A DNA stretch of 37,928 bases from a virus. Lineage: Duplodnaviria > Heunggongvirae > Uroviricota > Caudoviricetes. A program made the translations under genes and the position numbers. Position 1 is the first letter of the stretch. Each line of letters starts with the position of its first letter. The stretch lies in IMG/VR virus record IMGVR_UViG_2703718774_000026, one strand, 5' to 3'. The notes beneath the pieces were generated by a model. That model was given only the letters and a program-made list of their open reading frames with translations, was not told the DNA's origin and ran no database searches. Below, piece by piece: positions 7,899 through 35,917 of this stretch.

Positions 7899-8858
7899 AT
7901 GAAAATTTGTATCGACGACGGCTCCACCAACATCAAGCTGGCATGGACTGAGAACGGCGAACGCCGCAACGCCATCAGCCCGAACAGCTTCAAGTCGGAA
8001 TGGTCTGCGCCGTTCGGTGGCACGCAGCCCGCGAACTACATGCTTGATGGCGTGCGCTATGGTTTTGATCCGGTCAGCGATCGCTTTGTCCAGACGACCG
8101 ACACGCAATACCAGTACAGCGATGTGAATATAATTGCCATTCATCACGCGCTGGTCAAATCAGGCATCACACCACAGGAAGTGGATGTGGTTGTCACCCT
8201 GCCACTGAGCGAGTATTTCGATACAAACGCACAGCCGGACATGGCCAACATCAACCGCAAAAAAGCGAACGTCATGCGCCCGGTGGAGTACCAGAACGGC
8301 GAAGCATTCACTATCCGTAACGTACGGGTTATGCCTGAATCCATTCCGGCTGGCTTTAAGGCACTGGCTGACATGAGTCCGTTTGAATCCCTGCTGATTG
8401 TGGATTTGGGCGGAACCACTCTGGATGTGGCAAAGGTTCAGGGGCAACTGGCAGGTATCAGCCAGGTGTTTTGCGATCCACACGTGGGCGTTTCTCTGAT
8501 GGCCGATGCCGTACTGTCGGTGATGGCCACTAACGGTATGCGCACCAGTCACCACATCGCCAATACCATTATCGAACATCGCCATGATGAAGCCTGGCTG
8601 CGCCAGCACATCCACAATGACGCGCATTACGCCAGCCTGATGGCGGTTATTCGTGAAAAGGAAGAAACACTGAAACAACGCGTGATCCGCGCGCTGGCGG
8701 GTTTTTCGGGTTACGGGCGGGTGATGGTTGTCGGTGGAGGGGCGGAGATTGTGGCACCCGCTATCCGCGAAGCCTGCGGAGTTAATGCGACTTTCATCGC
8801 GGACGGGGTGCCACAGTTTGCTCTGGTTAATGGGCTGTACGCAATGGACAAGGAGTAA
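7899..8858 (+). CDS. parM: ParM/StbA-family actin-like ATPase, 319 aa
   Basis: N-terminus MKICIDDGSTNIKLAW..ISPNSFK.EW and blocks YSDVNI.A.HHAL, VMPESIPAG, DLGGTT.D, GVSL, VGGGAE align with plasmid R1 ParM as recalled from memory. Confidence 0.85.
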   Translation: MKICIDDGSTNIKLAWTENGERRNAISPNSFKSEWSAPFGGTQPANYMLDGVRYGFDPVSDRFVQTTDTQYQYSDVNIIAIHHALVKSGITPQEVDVVVTLPLSEYFDTNAQPDMANINRKKANVMRPVEYQNGEAFTIRNVRVMPESIPAGFKALADMSPFESLLIVDLGGTTLDVAKVQGQLAGISQVFCDPHVGVSLMADAVLSVMATNGMRTSHHIANTIIEHRHDEAWLRQHIHNDAHYASLMAVIREKEETLKQRVIRALAGFSGYGRVMVVGGGAEIVAPAIREACGVNATFIADGVPQFALVNGLYAMDKE

Positions 8859-8862
8859 ACCA

Positions 8863-9174
8863 ATGACGACTCCAACCAGACGGATAAGTTTCTATCTGAA
8901 GCCCACCGCCGTCAAGAACGAAGGAGAAGCATGCGCCTGGCTGGACAGCCTTACACCAGAAGCCCGCAAAAGCGGCCAACGCGTGGCTTTTCTGGCCGGG
9001 CTGGCACTTCTGAAAATGAATCCGGCAGAGGCTTATCGACTGGCTGCATGGGCTGGTGATGAAGCGTTATCAGTGACACAAACCAGGACAGAACGCCCCG
9101 CATCACAGCCAGTATCAACCGCACAGATAACCAGTCAGATGGCCGGAAATATCCGGGCGTTATTTCCTGAATAA
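8863..9174 (+). CDS. ParR/StbB-like small adaptor protein, 103 aa
   Basis: Starts 5 nt after the parM stop; N-terminus TRRISFYLKP...LDSLTPEARKSGQRVAFLAGLAL resembles the R1 ParR RHH region as recalled from memory. Confidence 0.6.
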   Translation: MTTPTRRISFYLKPTAVKNEGEACAWLDSLTPEARKSGQRVAFLAGLALLKMNPAEAYRLAAWAGDEALSVTQTRTERPASQPVSTAQITSQMAGNIRALFPE

Positions 9175-11364: not shown

Positions 11365-13115
11365 CAGAACTCCATAACCGTGAAACGCTCGTTTTCTCCT
11401 TCGCCGCCAATCGGTTCGTTAATGACAGCAAGCATGGTTGCCCACGCAAGGTCGCCGTGGCTGATCCCCCTCGCGCGGTCCGTTTCGTAAGTGATAAAGC
11501 CGCCCGGTGTTTTCACCTTACGCACGGCGTTAAAGGCCGCGACCAGCTCGCGTTCGGCGCGATCGTATTCCCACCGCCCGGCACGCATTATTTGCAGCAT
11601 TTTCAGTACCAGCGACCGTTTTGATGACAGCGTGAAGGTGTACGGAATAGCAGCAGGGAAAAACCGTTTCACTATCTGATAAACAGCCTCCCCGTTCCCG
11701 CCCGTCACATCAATGCCGATGTGTTCCACGTTGTAGCGATACGTGAACTCTTCAATGACTCTGGCCTGTTCTTCAAACTCCAGCCCCTGAACGCGTCGCG
11801 TCTCCACCGTTCGAAAACGGCCACCAGGAACAGCCGGAGGAACCACCACGGACACAGCGCCGCTGTCGCCGTTGCCACTACTGCCGTTTGCGTCATACCC
11901 AATCCATACCGGACGATTCCCCATCGGGCGGGGAGCAAAAGGTTTCCAGTCTTTCCAGTCGTCGTATCCGTCAACACCGCAGCCAATCAGGATATTCAGG
12001 TTAAATGCCGATTCCCCTTCGCGGACAAACTCACACATATAGAGATTGAGGAACTCGTCTTCGGTGTTTTCATCACGAATTTCGTCGATATCGGTGTGTT
12101 TCCAGCCGTGATTGACCACATCTTCCAGCGTGACAATTTGCCGCCACGTCCGGTCAGGGCAGATAAGCCCGTTATGCAGCGTTTTCCAGTCCACAGAAAA
12201 ACGCTGGCGTTTATGCGTGGCCTTTTTCTCGTTCCAGCGGTCGCCGTTCCAGTAGGCGTATGCCTCGTGCGTTTCGGTGGATGGCGTGGAGAAGTAGGTG
12301 CGCCGCAGTCCGCTGAGGGTTGCCATAGCGCCAGCCACCTTGCGCAGTTCAGCAAAGCGACTGACCCAGAAAAATTCATCAAAATAAAAATTGCCCGTAT
12401 AGGACTGTGCCGACGCAGCAGAAGTGCCGAGAAAATGCAGCTCTGCGCCGTTGGAGAGGATGATTTTATCGCCCCCTTTCAGCTCCACATCAACTTCAGC
12501 CGCGGCCTTCTGAATAATGCTTTTAAACTGGAACGCCTGACGACGCGACGCAGACAAAAAAATCTGGTTACGCTGGTAAGGTTGCGCCACATCGTCACGC
12601 AGCGCCATCAGCAGAGCTTCCTGTGCAAAATACCAGGTCGCCCCAATCTGTCGGGATTTCAGGATCATCCTGTTACGTATCCCGGCTTCCCTGCAAAGGG
12701 TCAGGGAGTCAAACCAGCCCCGCTGATGCCACTCCAGCCTGCTGATGATTTTTTCCCGCAGTGCGGCAATCTGTTCCGGCGTGAAATGATTTTTGAGTTT
12801 TTTCGCCCGGCCTTTCTTTCCTGTGACCGTCGCATCCGGCTGGCCATCATGCAGTTTTTTAAGCTGCCGGGTCAGCAGGTCTATTTCCTTAAAGTCACCG
12901 CCTGTTTTATTCTGTTTTTCAGTAAGCTGGATGAGGCGCGCATCGATGGACTGCGTGACACGCTGCACGGGTGGCGTTTCATCCCACTGGTCGCGTTTTT
13001 TCCACGCATAAATCGTGTTCGGGTTTATTCCCATCAGACGTGATATTTCTGCGGGCGGATAACCCTGCCAGTAAAGTTGCCGCGCACGCTGGCGCACAAA
13101 AGCGTCCTGAATCAT
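11364..13115 (-). CDS. P: Terminase large (ATPase) subunit (P2 gpP-like), 583 aa
   Basis: Size and order match P2 P; divergent from O across a 120-bp promoter region. Confidence 0.9.
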   Translation of the reverse strand: MIQDAFVRQRARQLYWQGYPPAEISRLMGINPNTIYAWKKRDQWDETPPVQRVTQSIDARLIQLTEKQNKTGGDFKEIDLLTRQLKKLHDGQPDATVTGKKGRAKKLKNHFTPEQIAALREKIISRLEWHQRGWFDSLTLCREAGIRNRMILKSRQIGATWYFAQEALLMALRDDVAQPYQRNQIFLSASRRQAFQFKSIIQKAAAEVDVELKGGDKIILSNGAELHFLGTSAASAQSYTGNFYFDEFFWVSRFAELRKVAGAMATLSGLRRTYFSTPSTETHEAYAYWNGDRWNEKKATHKRQRFSVDWKTLHNGLICPDRTWRQIVTLEDVVNHGWKHTDIDEIRDENTEDEFLNLYMCEFVREGESAFNLNILIGCGVDGYDDWKDWKPFAPRPMGNRPVWIGYDANGSSGNGDSGAVSVVVPPAVPGGRFRTVETRRVQGLEFEEQARVIEEFTYRYNVEHIGIDVTGGNGEAVYQIVKRFFPAAIPYTFTLSSKRSLVLKMLQIMRAGRWEYDRAERELVAAFNAVRKVKTPGGFITYETDRARGISHGDLAWATMLAVINEPIGGEGENERFTVMEF

Positions 13116-16826: not shown

Positions 16827-17150
16827 GTGAGCACCATTCAAACAGGGATCACAGAGCAGGTTATTGCGTGGCTCTTTGACCACCTGCCAACGGTGTATGC
16901 AGTAGGCGCGGCTGTCAGCATTTCCGCGCTGATGAGTCTTTATGACGGACGAACACTGGTTCAGACCGTAACGGGATCGCTGGCGTGCGGCGTTCTTGCC
17001 ATGGCCGTGGCCGGGTCGCTGCGCTTCTTCGGGATCCCTGAGGATGCAGTGACGTTTTTTGGTGCCTCAATCGGTTTTATGGGCGCAGAGAAAGCACGCG
17101 ACAAGGTTATTGCAATATTTGATCGCAGGGTGAAGGAGAGGAACGAATGA
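16827..17150 (+). CDS. Putative holin, about 107 aa
   Basis: GTG start after a GGGGGAG RBS; two or three hydrophobic helices; position between X and the endolysin. An alternative ATG start lies at 16931. Confidence 0.55.
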   Translation: MSTIQTGITEQVIAWLFDHLPTVYAVGAAVSISALMSLYDGRTLVQTVTGSLACGVLAMAVAGSLRFFGIPEDAVTFFGASIGFMGAEKARDKVIAIFDRRVKERNE

Positions 17151-17539
17151 GCAACACATTTAAATTCAGCAGCCGAAGCGAAAAGAATTTGCAGGGTGTA
17201 AATCCTGATCTGGTGAAAGTGACCCGACGGGCGCTGGAAATCTCGGAAGTGGATTTTGGTATCACCGAAGGATTGCGCAGTCGTTATCGTCAGAAGCAGC
17301 TCGTGACCACAGGCAAGAGCCAGACCATGAACAGTCGCCATCTCACAGGGCATGCCGTGGATGTTGTGGCTTATGTTGGCAGCCAGGTGTCATGGGAATG
17401 GCCGCTGTACGAAAAAATCGCAGCAGCATTCAGACAGGCCAGCCGGGAACTGAATATTCCGGTGGAATGGGGCGGCGACTGGAAGACCCTGAAAGACGGA
17501 CCGCATTTTCAGTTACCACACGGAGCCTATCCGGCATGA
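17147..17539 (+). CDS. Endolysin, peptidase M15-type (VanY-like zinc peptidase fold), 130 aa
   Basis: SRHLTGHAVDV and a later His are consistent with an H-x6-D...H zinc triad; start overlaps the holin stop; differs from the P2 K lysozyme. Confidence 0.7.
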   Translation: MSNTFKFSSRSEKNLQGVNPDLVKVTRRALEISEVDFGITEGLRSRYRQKQLVTTGKSQTMNSRHLTGHAVDVVAYVGSQVSWEWPLYEKIAAAFRQASRELNIPVEWGGDWKTLKDGPHFQLPHGAYPA

Positions 17540-17943
17540 AGCTCTGGCCCACGCTTGGCGTCGCTTTCCTTCTGATTGCCGCATGGGGAACATCCATGCG
17601 TCTGTCGTGGTCGCTGGGCCGGGAGAACGCCAGAAACGAAGCGCAGGCCAGCACCCTGAAAAGTACCGTCGACACACTGAATATCATCAGCGCCGGGGTA
17701 CAGGATATGCAGCAGGTGCTGGCTCAACTCCGCGCGGACAATCAGCAACGCAATCAGGACGGAGAGGTAAGACGTGAACAGCTACGCAACGATATTGCAA
17801 AAGATGAATGCGCCCACGCTTTGCCTGACGCTCGTTTTACTGACAGGTTGCGCAGGCACGCAGAACGCGCCACGGCCAGCGCCGTCAGTCCGGCTTATAC
17901 CGCAGACGCTGACCATGCCGGTAACGCCTCCCCCCTTCCCTGA
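17536..17943 (+). CDS. Rz-like inner-membrane spanin (P2 LysB position), 135 aa
   Basis: N-terminal transmembrane segment LWPTLGVAFLLIAAW, then a coiled-coil-like region; start overlaps the endolysin stop. Confidence 0.65.
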   Translation: MKLWPTLGVAFLLIAAWGTSMRLSWSLGRENARNEAQASTLKSTVDTLNIISAGVQDMQQVLAQLRADNQQRNQDGEVRREQLRNDIAKDECAHALPDARFTDRLRRHAERATASAVSPAYTADADHAGNASPLP

Positions 17944-18085
17944 CCAACCCACATGGGGAAACCTCGGAATATGGGGCGACCGCCTTCTGGATGCACTGGA
18001 AACCTGTAACGCGGATAAACGGGCCATTGCTGAACTGGATAAGAGAATAGCCGAACTGACACACCAGACGGGAGTAACACAATGA
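17804..18085 (+). CDS. Rz1-like outer-membrane lipoprotein spanin (P2 LysC position), about 93 aa
   Basis: Lipobox LLTGC after a short signal sequence, Pro-rich body; embedded out of frame in the 3' part of the Rz-like gene. Confidence 0.6.
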   Translation: MNAPTLCLTLVLLTGCAGTQNAPRPAPSVRLIPQTLTMPVTPPPFPDQPTWGNLGIWGDRLLDALETCNADKRAIAELDKRIAELTHQTGVTQ

Positions 18086-19714
18086 CCAGTAAGAACTTTG
18101 CACTGATTACAGCCATGACACAGGCTGAACTGACTCAAAAGGTGAATGAACATCTTGCGAAAGGGTGGCATCTTCAGGGGGAGACGCGGGTTGCCTACGA
18201 ACCCGGCACCCCGTGGTATCTAATGCAGGCAATGGTGGCCGATGGCACTACAGACATCTCACCTGATTCCCCCCAGCACGGCAGCGTGCCGGAGTGGTAT
18301 TACGTGGTGGTACTTGCTGGTCAATCCAATGCCATGTCATATGGTGAGGGAATGCCGCTGCCGGATTCTTACGATGCGCCCCACCCACGCATTAAGCAAC
18401 TGGCCCGTCGCAACACAGTGACTCCCGGTGGTAAAGCATGCGCATTTAACGACATCATTCCGGCAGATCACTGCCTGCATGATGTTCAGGATATGAGCGT
18501 ACTGAATCACCCGAATGCAGACCTGAGCAAAGGGCAGTATGGCTGTGTCGGACAGGGCTTGCATATTGCCAAACGCCTGTTGCCTTACATTCCACAGAAT
18601 GCCGGGATTTTACTGGTTCCATGCTGTCGTGGTGGTTCGGCATTCACCCAGGGCGCGGAGGGGACATTCAGCGAGTCCACAGGAGCCAGTCAGGATTCGG
18701 CTCGCTGGGGTGTGGGTAAACCTTTATATCAGGACCTGATTTTGCGCACGAAGGCCGCATTGCAGAAAAACCCAAAAAACATGCTGCTGGCCGTATGCTG
18801 GATGCAGGGCGAATTTGACATGAGCGCCGCTACGTACTCACAGCAACCTCCGCTGTTTGCGGCCATGCTGAAACAGTTTCGTGCGGACATTACCGAGTTT
18901 AACACGCAGTGTCATGGAGGCAGAGCGGCAAGTGTGCCATGGATTTGTGGTGACACGACGTATTACTGGAAAAACACCTACGGCACGCAGTACGACACCA
19001 TTTACGGGGCGTACAAAAACAGGGAGAGCGACAACGTTTTCTTTGTGCCATTCCTGACCGATGGTAGTGGCAACAATACCTCCACCAACGCACCAACGGA
19101 AGATCCGGATGCTGCAAGTGAGGGATATTACGGTTCGGCATCCCGAACGAACAAAAACTGGGTATCATCAAATCGCCAGACGCATTTCAGTTCATGGGCG
19201 CGCAGGAGCATTATTCCGGATCGTATGGCAACCGCTATTCTGAACGTAGCCGGTCGCACCTTAGCCTTCATCAGTGGTAAGGCACCGGANNNNNNNNNNN
19301 NNAGGCGCACTGACCAACAATCAGTTCGGTCTGGGAATTTATCTGTATACCGATGTAGCGTTACCTGACGTCGTGGCGATGACCGGGACTGGTAACCCGT
19401 TCCTGATGTCGTTCTTCACCCAGACCACAGACGGCAAACTGAATCTGATGCATCACAAGAAAGCAGGAAACACAAAGTTGGGCGAGTTCGGGAATTACAG
19501 TAACGACTGGCAGACGCTGGAGCTGGTGTTCACCGCCAGCAGTGCCACGGTTACTCCGAAACTGAATGGAGTGGCTGGCCCGGCATTCCAGGTCATAAAA
19601 GACAGTCTGACACTGGGGCTGAATGCACTGACGCTGACGGATATTACCAAAAATGCAACGTATGGCGTTGAGATAGAAAGTCTGGTGCTGGAAATAAATA
19701 GTCCTGCAGCGTAA
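18082..19714 (+). CDS. DUF1737-SASA-type SGNH O-acetylesterase (NanS-p-like), interrupted by an N-run
   Basis: Catalytic-type block VVVLAGQSNAMSYG (GQSN) after a short N-terminal domain; the ORF appears to continue across the 13-N gap, whose frame shift matches 13 mod 3 = 1; start overlaps the LysC stop. Confidence 0.6.
19290..19302. other. Run of 13 N (assembly gap or masked bases)
   Basis: Literal n characters in the sequence; true length unknown. Confidence 1.
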
Positions 19715-19737
19715 GGATGAACAGGAGAGCAAAACAG

Positions 19738-20205
19738 ATGCTTAAGACAAACAGCCTCCGGAAGGGCATGATTCATGGGTGTCGCTGGTGTCAGGCCAAC
19801 CCGGAAAAATTCACCATTTTCGTGGAGAGCGGCAACATTGAAACGACCGGAGAAACGCCCTCGTTTGTTTACCGCTATCAGATGGTGATGTTTGTCATGG
19901 ATTACGCCGGGGAGCTGGACGACCTCACGCTGCCGCTACTGGCGTGGTTATCCGAAAATCAGCCGCAATTGTTGCTTAATCCGGAGCGTAATCAGGACAT
20001 CAAATTCTCCGCCGTTATCAATGACGATGACAGCGCCGATCTCCTGTTTACGCTCCCTCTGCGGGAACGCGTTCGCATCACGCGCAGCAGTCAGGGGGCA
20101 CCGCAGGCAGAACACCTGCAGGAGCCAAAACCCCGTCTGCCATCTTCCGAAGGCGACTGGTCGCATGTATTCCAGGATGTGACGTGGGGTGAAAGCGATG
20201 GATAA
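19738..20205 (+). CDS. R: Tail completion protein R (P2 gpR-like), about 155 aa
   Basis: MLKTNSLRKG...IFVESGNIET...LPLLAWLSENQP parallels P2 R as recalled from memory; internal ATG at 19738 preferred over 19717. Confidence 0.8.
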   Translation: MLKTNSLRKGMIHGCRWCQANPEKFTIFVESGNIETTGETPSFVYRYQMVMFVMDYAGELDDLTLPLLAWLSENQPQLLLNPERNQDIKFSAVINDDDSADLLFTLPLRERVRITRSSQGAPQAEHLQEPKPRLPSSEGDWSHVFQDVTWGESDG

Positions 20206-20833
20206 GGCATTCACCCGCGTGGATGAAACCTTTGAGGCTATCCGCGACAGCCTGAATCAGCAGGCCATCAATAACATCGCCAGAAAGCTGGCACAGGATT
20301 TACGCCGCGCCCAGCAGGCGCGTATCCGGTCACAGAAAGCGCCGGACGGGACCGCGTGGACACCACGCAGACGCCGCGTAACCCGGATACAGGAGCGCAT
20401 TCGCTTTATCTGGAATAACGAAGCACGCACGCTGAAAAACTGGCATCACGACACGGGGAAATACGGGCGAACCATTACCGGGTGGGATGAGGATAAAAAC
20501 AATATCCGCACGTTTTACCGGGATGACATCGACCGCTTTCTGGAAATACGCACCCGGCGCATCAACCAGGACAGCACAAAGCGCGTCCCCATGTTCGTAA
20601 AACTGCGCACCGCCCGCTACCTGAAAGCCCGTGCAGATGCTTCCGGTGTGACGGTGGGTTACAGCGGCGTGGCCGCACGTATTGCCCGCGTTCATCAGTT
20701 CGGTGAGCGCGATCAGGTTGCGCCGGGCATTTTCACCGATTACCCGGTACGTGAGCTGTTGGGCATCAGTCAGGCAGATGAACGCCTGATTTATAACACG
20801 GTGCTGGGCCGGATTGCGGAGGCTGTACGGTGA
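20198..20833 (+). CDS. S: Tail completion / virion morphogenesis protein S-like, 211 aa
   Basis: Position between R and V; start overlaps the R stop. Confidence 0.7.
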   Translation: MDKAFTRVDETFEAIRDSLNQQAINNIARKLAQDLRRAQQARIRSQKAPDGTAWTPRRRRVTRIQERIRFIWNNEARTLKNWHHDTGKYGRTITGWDEDKNNIRTFYRDDIDRFLEIRTRRINQDSTKRVPMFVKLRTARYLKARADASGVTVGYSGVAARIARVHQFGERDQVAPGIFTDYPVRELLGISQADERLIYNTVLGRIAEAVR

Positions 20834-25937: not shown

Positions 25938-26510
25938 CTATTTATACAATACAACACCGCTCTTTTTAGTTATATATGTGCAGTTCGATGGTATATCTTT
26001 ATTTATAAAAGACATTGCACCTATTTTTACATTATCCCCAATTTTACGTGATAATCCAATGATGCAACAATTAGCTCCGATATCAACGTTACTACCAATT
26101 TTTACTCTTGAACCAGGCATGTCACCATCTATCTGTCCAATGGTAGTATTCTGTCGTAACACCAGATTTTCACCAGCATCAACAGCAAAATGAACAACAA
26201 TTCCAGCATGATGGGGAATTGTTAACCCTTTTCCAATATTTGCGCCCAATCCAATTTCACAACCAAATTTGTTAATTATTTTACTGTTTAACTTTTTGGC
26301 TGCTTTCTTATGTAATTTATTACCATTAATATACATTTCGTTAGCCAACCGCCACCAGAAAAGGAAATTCCGGTTACGCTGTTTTTTCTCTCTTAAAAGC
26401 CTCCAGATATCCATACGTTTCCGCCGAATTACTTCATATTTCCAGAAGTTTTTTAAATTAGTAGAGTCCCCAAATAAAACAAAGTGAATTGCCATTAAGT
26501 AAGACAGCAC
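25938..26510 (-). CDS. Hexapeptide-repeat (left-handed beta-helix) acetyltransferase, about 190 aa
   Basis: Imperfect hexad repeats GCEIGLGANIGKGLTIPHHAGIVV...GQIDGDMPGSRVKIGSNVDIGANCCIIGLSRKIGDNVKIGA; GTG start after AAGGAG preferred over the ATG at 26543; very AT-rich; sits at the P2 Z/fun cargo position. Confidence 0.75.
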   Translation of the reverse strand: MLSYLMAIHFVLFGDSTNLKNFWKYEVIRRKRMDIWRLLREKKQRNRNFLFWWRLANEMYINGNKLHKKAAKKLNSKIINKFGCEIGLGANIGKGLTIPHHAGIVVHFAVDAGENLVLRQNTTIGQIDGDMPGSRVKIGSNVDIGANCCIIGLSRKIGDNVKIGAMSFINKDIPSNCTYITKKSGVVLYK

Positions 26511-33899: not shown

Positions 33900-35039
33900 G
33901 TGGGAAACAATAAAGTGAAATTAGGAAGAAATGATAAGTGCTGGTGTAATTCAGGACTTAAGTATAAAAAGTGCCATCTTGGTCGAGATCGTGAAACTCC
34001 GGTATCCAAAGCCGAGGCACTGAAATTTTCAAAGTCTCTCTCGCAGAGAAAGGCATGTTATGCGCCAGCATCCATGCACGAAGATTGTGATAAACGCATC
34101 GTTCAGGCGCATACGATATCTAAGAGCAGTAGCCTTAAGGCGATCGCCGACTCCAGCAATCACGTCATGGGGGTGATAATGAACTTAGCAAGCCTGATGA
34201 GAAACAACGGAAAATGGCTTCCCGAGAAGATCGGTATCAATCAGGCATCCACTTTTACAGGATTTTGTGCAGTTCATGACAGAATCTTATTTTCATGCCT
34301 AGAGAACGAAAAATTTACAGGCACGGACGAGCAGTGCTTTGCCTTAATGTTTCGTTCATTGTCTAAAGAAATTTATGCCAAAGAAGGGGGAGTGCTATCT
34401 TCTGATTTTGCTAAAAATGCCGATAAAGGAAAGCTACAAGTTGAACAGTATTATATTCAGAAATTAATCGACCAGCACCAAAGTGGCTTAAATGCAGCAA
34501 TAATTGAATTAAATAATCTTAAAACTAGCCTCGACCGCATCCTACTTAGCAGGCAATTTTCAGAAATTGAAAGTGTTATCTTCACTTTTGCAGAGCCTTT
34601 ACCAATTGTAGTTTCGTCAATTCTTTCACCGGAGAGGGATTTCGATGGGACCAAAATTCAGGATTTGAGCGATCTTACAGTGTCGGCGGAACAAGTATGT
34701 TTCAATGCTTTTTCCTGCGGAGGTAAGGGATATGTAGTGTTCAGTTGGCTGAGAACTTCAACAATTATCAGACGTTTTATACGGACACTAATTAAGATCC
34801 CAGCTAACAGGATGTTCAATACCCTTCTGTATTTTTTCTTCACAAAGGCCGAAAATACATATTCATCCCCTGAGTGGTGGGACAGGCTCAGTGATAAACA
34901 GCGAGAGAATATCGGCAACATGATTATGTCAGGGGTTGAATTTTTTGGCAGACCTACATCACAGGTTGATCATTCCGTTGATTATAACGCCGCTGCACTT
35001 GAAGAGATAACATGCAGCAACAACGAAATTTGCAGCTGA
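33900..35039 (+). CDS. SEC-C-motif protein of unknown function, 379 aa
   Basis: N-terminal CWCNSGLKYKKCH is a SecA C-terminal-type zinc motif; rest unrecognised; GTG start; AT-rich; inserted between D and ogr. Confidence 0.6.
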   Translation: MGNNKVKLGRNDKCWCNSGLKYKKCHLGRDRETPVSKAEALKFSKSLSQRKACYAPASMHEDCDKRIVQAHTISKSSSLKAIADSSNHVMGVIMNLASLMRNNGKWLPEKIGINQASTFTGFCAVHDRILFSCLENEKFTGTDEQCFALMFRSLSKEIYAKEGGVLSSDFAKNADKGKLQVEQYYIQKLIDQHQSGLNAAIIELNNLKTSLDRILLSRQFSEIESVIFTFAEPLPIVVSSILSPERDFDGTKIQDLSDLTVSAEQVCFNAFSCGGKGYVVFSWLRTSTIIRRFIRTLIKIPANRMFNTLLYFFFTKAENTYSSPEWWDRLSDKQRENIGNMIMSGVEFFGRPTSQVDHSVDYNAAALEEITCSNNEICS

Positions 35040-35776: not shown

Positions 35777-35917
35777 ATGTCGCAAAAATCGCTTACAGCC
35801 ATCACGTTCTGCGTGACGGTAATCCTCATCATCTGGATGCTACGCGGTTCGCTGTGTGAAATACGGATGAGCTTCTGGGGAGCGGAGTTTGCGGCGTTCT
35901 TACAGTGTAAGCAGTAA
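35777..35917 (+). CDS. Hok/Gef-family type I toxin-like peptide, 46 aa
   Basis: Hand-translated MSQKSLTAITFCVTVILIIWMLRGSLCEIRMSFWGAEFAAFLQCKQ: one transmembrane helix then R.SLCEIR and EFAAF, resembling Hok (RKSLCEIRY...EVAAF, recalled from memory); RBS AAAGGAG. Confidence 0.55.
   Translation: MSQKSLTAITFCVTVILIIWMLRGSLCEIRMSFWGAEFAAFLQCKQ

Follow-up and report, generated by a model that had tools for sequence, protein, structure and literature searches.

Sialate O-acetylesterases of the NanS-p class are regarded as a fitness factor of enterohaemorrhagic Escherichia coli (EHEC) in the mucus layer and, to our knowledge, have been discussed almost only for lambdoid Shiga toxin (Stx) and related prophages. 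Lambdoid members, such as p42 of 933W, gp84 of phi24B (vb_24B_21), the JLK-2012 esterase and the 'YjhS/SASA esterase' of phage 434, combine the domains DUF1737, SASA and DUF6645, lack a signal peptide and are encoded in the late operon beside the lysis cassette. Chromosomal NanS of E. coli (YjhS; structure 3pt5), by comparison, is a single-domain protein of about 330 residues, with neither DUF1737 nor DUF6645, and its gene belongs to the nan regulon rather than to a phage late operon. Here we analyse a gene with the lambdoid architecture in another type of phage. It lies in the IMG/VR virus record IMGVR_UViG_2703718774_000026, a stretch of 37,928 nucleotides hereafter called the window, which holds an E. 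coli O26:H11 prophage with a P88-like backbone (Xuanwuvirus, Peduoviridae) and P2-type morphogenesis genes. The gene stands between the spanin gene lysC and the tail completion gene R. Judged by its sequence, it is a three-domain NanS-p-class sialate O-acetylesterase (DUF1737, SASA and DUF6645), and we consider it highly probable that this enzyme is cargo of the P88-like late unit, made late in the phage cycle and released by lysis.

The class assignment is carried by profile, structure and motif comparisons. A run of 13 N splits the gene into two readable pieces, and these match the Pfam profiles DUF1737 (E=7e-07), SASA (E=6.8e-12) and, in the piece after the gap, DUF6645 (E=4e-16), all above the gathering scores. 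In the uninterrupted protein of 625 residues found in closed genomes, DUF1737 covers residues 4-53 (28.8 bits against a cut-off of 24), SASA residues 75-271 (E=2.3e-11) and DUF6645 residues 476-586 (E=2.6e-19). A search of the PDB aligns residues 69-388 with E. coli NanS/YjhS (3pt5, E=5.8e-124) and residues 430-622 with the C-terminal domain of phi24B NanS-p (6yp6, E=3.2e-31). An AlphaFold2 (AF2) model built from a 26-sequence alignment, with a mean predicted local distance difference test score (pLDDT) of 73.6, has three domains and two low-confidence linkers (residues 56-68 and 392-421); Foldseek pairs the model with 3pt5 (TMt 0.88) and 6yp6 (TMt 0.85), and then with lectins, including the sialic-acid-binding domain of V. 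cholerae sialidase. The catalytic domain shares with NanS the GQSN motif and a conserved histidine: the GQSN serine is Ser82 (codon 18325-18327), and both Ser82 and His368 are invariant among 26 homologues. The original prediction, made from the window alone, had proposed a DUF1737-SASA esterase with an SGNH-type GQSN motif, similar to the lambdoid NanS-p proteins. Both domains are supported by the profile search, with DUF6645 as an additional third; the motif agrees with the SASA match, the 3pt5 homology and the invariance of Ser82; and the similarity proves to be true homology, as the matches to 3pt5 and 6yp6 and an overall identity of 83% to the JLK-2012 esterase indicate.

That lambdoid esterase is also the closest one domain by domain, with 86% identity in the SASA domain and 92% in the C-terminal domain, compared with 38-67% for the body of the Min27/933W type. 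At the DNA level, megablast finds about 85% similarity to lambdoid nanS-p genes (JLK-2012, phage 434 and Stx1a phages) limited to window positions 18288-19699, that is, from the 3' end of the first linker and the first residues of the catalytic domain to near the stop codon. The protein, like its lambdoid homologues, has no signal peptide; its N-terminus is occupied by the DUF1737 domain instead. The genomic position is different: the lambdoid gene lies between Q/stx and the holin gene, whereas the window gene lies downstream of holin, endolysin and spanins, between lysC and R. Its late control would be of the Ogr type, in place of Q antitermination.

Window positions 16827-20833 belong to a P2-type late operon, of which they hold the lysis and tail-completion genes, entirely on the plus strand (Table 1). 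The order capsid-L-X-holin-endolysin-lysB/lysC-R-S matches that of P2-type late operons, in which genes on one strand overlap or abut, and the esterase is the extra gene. Its ATG at 18082 overlaps the TGA stop of lysC (18083-18085) in an ATGA at 18082-18085 and is preceded, 7 nt upstream, by GGGAG; lysC itself likely starts at the ATG at 17804, with a MNAPTLCLTLVLLTGC lipobox. Past the esterase stop codon (TAA, 19712-19714), gpR begins after 23 nt, with AGGAG at 19723-19727. The expected location between lysC and R, now backed by annotation and by Pfam matches of the neighbours, thus holds, as do the overlap with the lysC stop and the close junction with R. The backbone had been called P2-type, which stands, but the relative is not P2 itself: it is a P88-like Xuanwuvirus with an M15 endolysin.

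Comparison with esterase-free phages delimits the extra segment. P88 and other Xuanwuvirus members show 95-96% DNA identity to the window in the flanking holin, M15 endolysin, LysB/LysC, R and S genes, and in P88, 520873, 500465-2, 503458, P884B11, Chuche and PhiR44_2 lysC leads directly to R, without an esterase. In P88, the closest esterase-free relative, lysC overlaps the start of R. Homology to P88 is lost within the 3' part of lysC, near 18030, and returns where R starts. Because the break falls inside lysC, whose last 55 nt or so differ from P88, the esterase-bearing segment brings its own LysC C-terminus. The GC content of the esterase gene is slightly below that of its flanks. Between 16500 and 20900, promoter-like sites number one against 2.5 expected, and a signal scan of the same interval found no plus-strand terminator inside the esterase segment. 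A separate transcription unit for the esterase was rejected, there being no excess of promoter or terminator signals. In the reference O26:H11 annotation the prophage is complete from integrase to ogr.

Since the esterase lacks a signal peptide, and its gene, coupled to lysC, lacks promoter and terminator signals of its own, synthesis would be confined to the late phase. We propose that it is carried as cargo within the late (gpO-to-gpS) transcription unit of the P88-like prophage and that, by translational coupling to lysC, it would be made only when the late operon fires. It would then leave the cell upon lysis by the adjacent holin, endolysin and spanins, and outside the cell it would remove 9-O-acetyl groups from free or mucin-bound sialic acids; the N-acetylneuraminic acid (Neu5Ac) thereby formed would be usable by surviving sibling lysogens. 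For lambdoid NanS-p, the supply of Neu5Ac by de-O-acetylation has been shown experimentally.

The choice of substrate could be a different one. Rather than host mucin, the esterase might act on bacterial surface glycans, such as O-acetylated O-antigen or K1-type polysialic acid, and modify or destroy receptors in phage adsorption or release. This idea has been raised for NanS-p in a review (PMC8065619), and the window does hold, beside the tail-fibre genes, a hexapeptide acyltransferase cargo gene (25938-26510). However, NanS, to which the catalytic domain is closely homologous, acts on Neu5,9Ac2, the C-terminal domain resembles sialic-acid-binding lectin domains, the hosts belong to the unrelated serotypes O26, O104 and O25b, and the acyltransferase goes with the tail-fibre allele and not with the esterase. 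We therefore find a role on surface glycans very unlikely. The acyltransferase gene is on the minus strand, with the tail-fibre assembly gene on one side and the tail genes on the other, and its product is a hexapeptide-repeat protein of 190 residues (RefSeq 'serine O-acetyltransferase'; weak Pfam Hexapep match), which co-occurs with one tail-fibre (gpH/gpG) allele across related loci and may be a surface-glycan O-acetylating conversion gene. A functional pairing with the esterase was considered and rejected, as the acyltransferase follows the tail-fibre allele.

On both flanks of the 13-N gap, positions 17000-20300 match more than 30 closed E. coli chromosomes, such as that of O26:H11 11368 (NC_013361), at 100% identity, and in this genome and many other closed ones the 13 N correspond to 258 in-frame bases, or 86 codons (aligned span of 3546 in the record against 3301 in the query). 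The gene of the closed genomes has 1878 nt and encodes 625 residues (WP_000202151.1, 'DUF6645 domain-containing protein'), so that the length of about 540 residues first estimated was too short. Likewise, the two window pieces match positions 1-402 and 495-631 of the 634 of the PHROG 143 profile, and the positions missing between them imply that some 90 residues are hidden in the gap. The pieces look out of frame because 13 N replace 258 bases. The gap falls inside the segment with the highest identity to paralogous nanS-p copies (the 3.3-kb query matched 6-10 places per O26 genome), and this similarity is a plausible reason for the break in a short-read assembly.

The opposite case, namely that the N run of this isolate conceals a frameshift or rearrangement and the gene is a broken remnant or a product of faulty assembly, could appeal to the two pieces being out of frame as written and to the defective alleles that exist elsewhere (L015, L031 and L025/L030). 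We judge it very improbable, since the 3.3-kb flanks are 100% identical to those of more than 30 closed genomes with 258 in-frame bases, and the paralogue-like segment that holds the gap is the usual cause of short-read breaks. As read from the closed genomes, the gene is intact in this lineage and is no pseudogene there; the doubt voiced earlier about its integrity is thus lifted for the lineage. The defective alleles come from P88-like IMG/VR loci whose operons are otherwise intact: two are frameshifted (218 and 273 residues), and in a 286-residue form an in-frame internal deletion has removed residues 197-525 or thereabouts, the N-terminal domain and the end of the C-terminal domain being kept.

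The P2-type arrangement is widespread in E. coli. A segment comprising the 3' end of lysC and the N-terminal domain occurs in 376 of 5426 complete genomes (about 7%, which carry the esterase in a P2-type prophage), and in all matches listed it lies under lysC plus an esterase. As about 1010-1060 complete E. coli genomes have the P88-like lysis cassette, some 36% of P88-like prophages carry the esterase. With this frequency, and with the same slot occupied in other P2-like lineages, the gene is no one-off insertion; the word 'inserted' in the original prediction says too little, although the position then given, between the spanin genes and R, is correct. Carriers include O26:H11, the O104:H4 outbreak clone (with a 626-residue allele) and ST131. 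The exact 625-residue protein is found on at least 1000 contigs and its 90% cluster has 13,211 members, under database names that vary between DUF1737, DUF6645 and sialate O-acetylesterase. Neither the family nor its fold or biochemical role is new, and the gene is annotated in thousands of genomes; our literature search returned no paper on the P2-type context or the P2-type N-terminal clade of such esterases. Five NanS-p proteins of O104:H4 C227-11, together with those of EDL933, have been reported to be active Neu5,9Ac2 esterases that support growth (review PMC8065619). The C227-11 genome contains five nanS-like loci, the 626-residue allele of the window gene among them, and this allele has probably been assayed already.

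When IMG/VR was scanned with the N-terminal domain, 33 distinct loci came up, and each proved to be a P2-type operon in which the esterase stands between lysC and R. Seven of the 33 are more divergent E. coli P2-like prophages, whose gpN (about 62%), gpR (54-56%) and LysB (25-29%) are far less similar to those of the window and whose esterases are 49-53% identical overall to the window protein; at least two further divergent E. coli P2-like backbone groups have an esterase in the lysC-R slot. One of these divergent prophages, L037, has a capsid protein 62% identical to that of Xuanwuvirus, and megablast of it against deposited phages gave no match. Its esterase-R interval (about 11970-12370) contains a small open reading frame (ORF) with a hydrophobic N-terminal stretch, beginning MGFIHQIMLYFSTAVSLLYLISGG, so that the lysC-R slot collects extra genes; the interval also has a hairpin that would act as a minus-strand terminator. 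Outside E. coli, a genome-contig scan with the full protein detected no P2-type locus; its matches were confined to copies that are lambdoid or from E. albertii and to NanS-like genes of Proteus and of a Bacillota metagenome-assembled genome. A word-indexed search with the 69-residue N-terminus returned fragments only, and the ten matches of an all-against-all HMMER search with 56 residues were fragments and generic single-domain DUF1737 proteins.

Some observations weigh against the reading of the gene as a late-made, lysis-released sialate O-acetylesterase. The catalytic-triad position has RxxH instead of DxxH, and AF2 confidence is low near the GQSN loop (residues 82-94). The window's own 258 bases are hidden, and what they encode is deduced from closed genomes. 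The identification of the O104:H4 allele with one of the assayed proteins is based on copy count, five loci for five NanS-p proteins. Finally, frameshifts or internal deletions affect the gene at some related loci (L015, L031 and L025/L030), and to judge from these alleles the esterase is dispensable.

The N-terminal domain raises a further question, that of where the enzyme resides. In phi24B, the DUF1737 of gp84 was identified by cryo-EM and proteomics as a capsid-binding domain: it occupies the hexon centres as a hexamer, held in place by a tyrosine of one loop, and the enzyme undergoes proteolytic processing (bioRxiv 10.64898/2026.04.10.717836). By extension, the P2-type DUF1737 could dock the window esterase on the gpN capsid, so that virions would carry a sialate esterase and a lectin that aid in binding or crossing mucus. 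Proteolytic shedding might follow, and such docking would be compatible with release by lysis. We hold this to be possible, though doubtful.

In its favour, the N-terminal module tracks phage type and the body does not, across the 33 IMG/VR loci, the listed matches of the 376 genomes and all three of three chosen proteins. The window DUF1737 belongs to a separate, P2-specific clade with its own conserved loop: N-terminal identity is 94-100% within P88-like prophages, 57-66% to other P2-type lineages and 21-39% to lambdoid forms. Towards the other P2-type lineages, the SASA and C-terminal domains are 65-69% and 33-38% identical, respectively, while among P88-like prophages the body alleles vary between 84% and 100% and the flanks between 95% and 100%. 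The identity of gpN sorts seven P2-type loci into three backbone groups; over these loci it correlates with the identity of the N-terminus (r=0.68) but not with that of the SASA (r=0.05) and C-terminal (r=0.11) domains. In a test set beforehand, three of three proteins picked only for a P2-type N-terminus (P0155, P0129 and P0107) proved to lie between lysB/lysC and gpR in P2-type operons, with a lysozyme-type endolysin; two others, which have lambdoid N-termini, are encoded between Q and holin, the region in which lambdoid DUF1737 forms are located.

The predicted fold and the loop of the domain point the same way. The AF2 model predicts a helix (residues 14-26) and three strands (5-11, 30-38 and 46-53), at pLDDT 69-82, with the loop 39-YEPGTPW-45 between the second and third strands; like the anchoring loop of the phi24B type, it contains an aromatic residue. 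The prediction has the fold of the phi24B domain, a hexon-centre decoration comparable by analogy to Hoc of T4, and a Ser-Pro-rich disordered linker leads to the enzyme. The loop forms the capsid 'tooth' in phi24B; its P2-type version, EPGxP(W/F)YLMQ, is kept in all ten distinct P2-type sequences, compared with at least four to five loop forms among 40 lambdoid ones. An SSP motif is the proposed cleavage site of the phi24B protein, and in its place the linkers of the window protein, which have no SSP, contain ISPDSP and KPSPGG/TPSGPS. The gene also stands among structural genes.

Also in favour, other phages bear other N-termini on the same body. In two Mu-like prophages a domain of about 100 residues without a Pfam match replaces DUF1737, in a gene that follows the invertase gene at the right end (P0170/L058, 10001-12070; P0182/L060, 10001-12280). 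In one protein of 917 residues, P0151 (L056, 1015-3768), a PF08400 tail-fibre N-terminus (E=9e-49) and a coiled coil precede the SASA and DUF6645 body; its gene comes after a tail-fibre assembly gene at the prophage end, and it looks like a tail-borne version of the esterase. A 752-residue protein on a 6.6-Mb contig, P0073, joins a nearly complete esterase to a tail-fibre C-terminal 'Collar' domain and presumably arose in a decayed prophage by a deletion that runs from the esterase gene to gene H. A small DUF1378 ORF (L061, 9105-9257; L062, 9046-9213; L065, 8089-8265) stands behind the esterase gene both in two of the divergent P2-type operons and in late regions of lambdoid type, and seems, from this arrangement, to travel with the esterase body as one cassette.

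Against docking on the capsid, the pattern is also what limits on recombination alone would produce, if exchange is restricted to the homologous body. The gene is missing from about two thirds of P88-like prophages, and within one backbone group the gpN proteins are 98-99% identical while the N-termini are 70-94% identical. Phage 434 and JLK-2012 share one N-terminal type on heads made of lambda gpE and of an unrelated fusion of protease and major capsid protein, respectively, and a strict correspondence between N-terminal type and capsid protein family was rejected for this reason. The esterase of phage 434 lies inside an annotated 'region of 434B nonhomology' (L055, 41277-45846), a late segment exchanged by recombination, so that lambdoid esterase and head genes reassort freely. 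Geometry differs as well: capsid binding was seen in the T=9 particles of phi24B, where the domain binds only the flat central hexons, whereas P2 capsids are T=7, without such hexons. Weighing both sides, it is possible, though less likely than not, that the N-terminal module is a virion-attachment adaptor specific to phage type (lambdoid DUF1737, P2-type DUF1737, the Mu-like domain or a tail-fibre N-terminus), with the catalytic and lectin body as exchangeable cargo, and that P2-type gpN capsids carry esterase and lectin. Lysis release of a late-made esterase remains our preferred reading.

Table 1. Features of the esterase gene and its neighbours in the late operon (window coordinates; aa, residues of the 625-residue protein)
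Feature	Position	Strand	Basis
Holin, opens the lysis cassette	16827..17150	+	RefSeq annotation, identical O26:H11 region
Endolysin, M15 metallopeptidase type, unlike the lysozyme type of P2 gpK	17147..17539	+	Pfam Peptidase_M15_4 E=7.8e-12; PHROG 465 endolysin E=2e-76
LysB, Rz-like inner-membrane spanin	17536..17943	+	PHROG 214 Rz-like spanin E=1.6e-40; weak DUF2570 match
LysC, Rz1-like outer-membrane spanin lipoprotein, embedded in/overlapping lysB	17774..18085	+	Pfam LysC E=5.5e-14
N-terminal DUF1737 domain, aa 1-53, P2-type clade, loop/strand EPGxP(W/F)YLMQ	18082..18240	+	Pfam DUF1737 aa 4-53; AF2 strand-helix-strand-strand; clade analysis
Linker 1, aa 54-70, predicted disordered, Ser-Pro-rich	18241..18291	+	pLDDT <50 for aa 56-68
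SASA/SGNH catalytic domain, aa 71-391	18292..19254	+	3pt5 NanS E=5.8e-124 over aa 69-388; Foldseek TMt 0.88
Start of linker 2, aa 392-403, up to the gap	19255..19289	+	pLDDT <50 for aa 392-421; sequence
Run of 13 N, standing for 258 bases, aa 404-489 (remaining linker 2 and first third of C-terminal domain)	19290..19302		Alignment with O26:H11 11368
Rest of C-terminal lectin-like jelly-roll domain (DUF6645, aa 490-625) and TAA	19303..19714	+	Pfam DUF6645; 6yp6 E=3.2e-31
gpR tail completion protein	19738..20205	+	Pfam P2_Phage_GpR E=1.2e-37; RefSeq start; P88 R start aligns here
gpS tail completion/virion morphogenesis protein, overlaps R	20198..20833	+	Pfam Phage_tail_S E=8.3e-28; annotation

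Elsewhere in the window, a ParM-type plasmid segregation protein and a partition/stability protein are encoded at 7899-9174, between the replication gene and the late genes. Between gene D and ogr, positions 33900-35039 encode a 379-residue 'YecA family protein', and ogr is directly followed by a Hok/Gef toxin gene (35777-35917). In the reference genome, the opposite end of the prophage, with the integrase, borders on the host yecA gene.

The enzyme body of NanS-p is thus also carried by P2-type prophages, including those of O26:H11, the O104:H4 outbreak clone and ST131. Because these prophages carry the same body, counts of nanS-p copies in pathogens should include non-lambdoid prophages. Short-read assemblies are prone to breaks in paralogous nanS-p genes. 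If the P2-type DUF1737 were indeed a capsid anchor, the structural finding made in phi24B would extend to myoviruses, and a tractable, inducible myovirus system would be at hand for testing mucin-modifying enzymes on phage heads; it would also indicate a general phage strategy for working in mucus.

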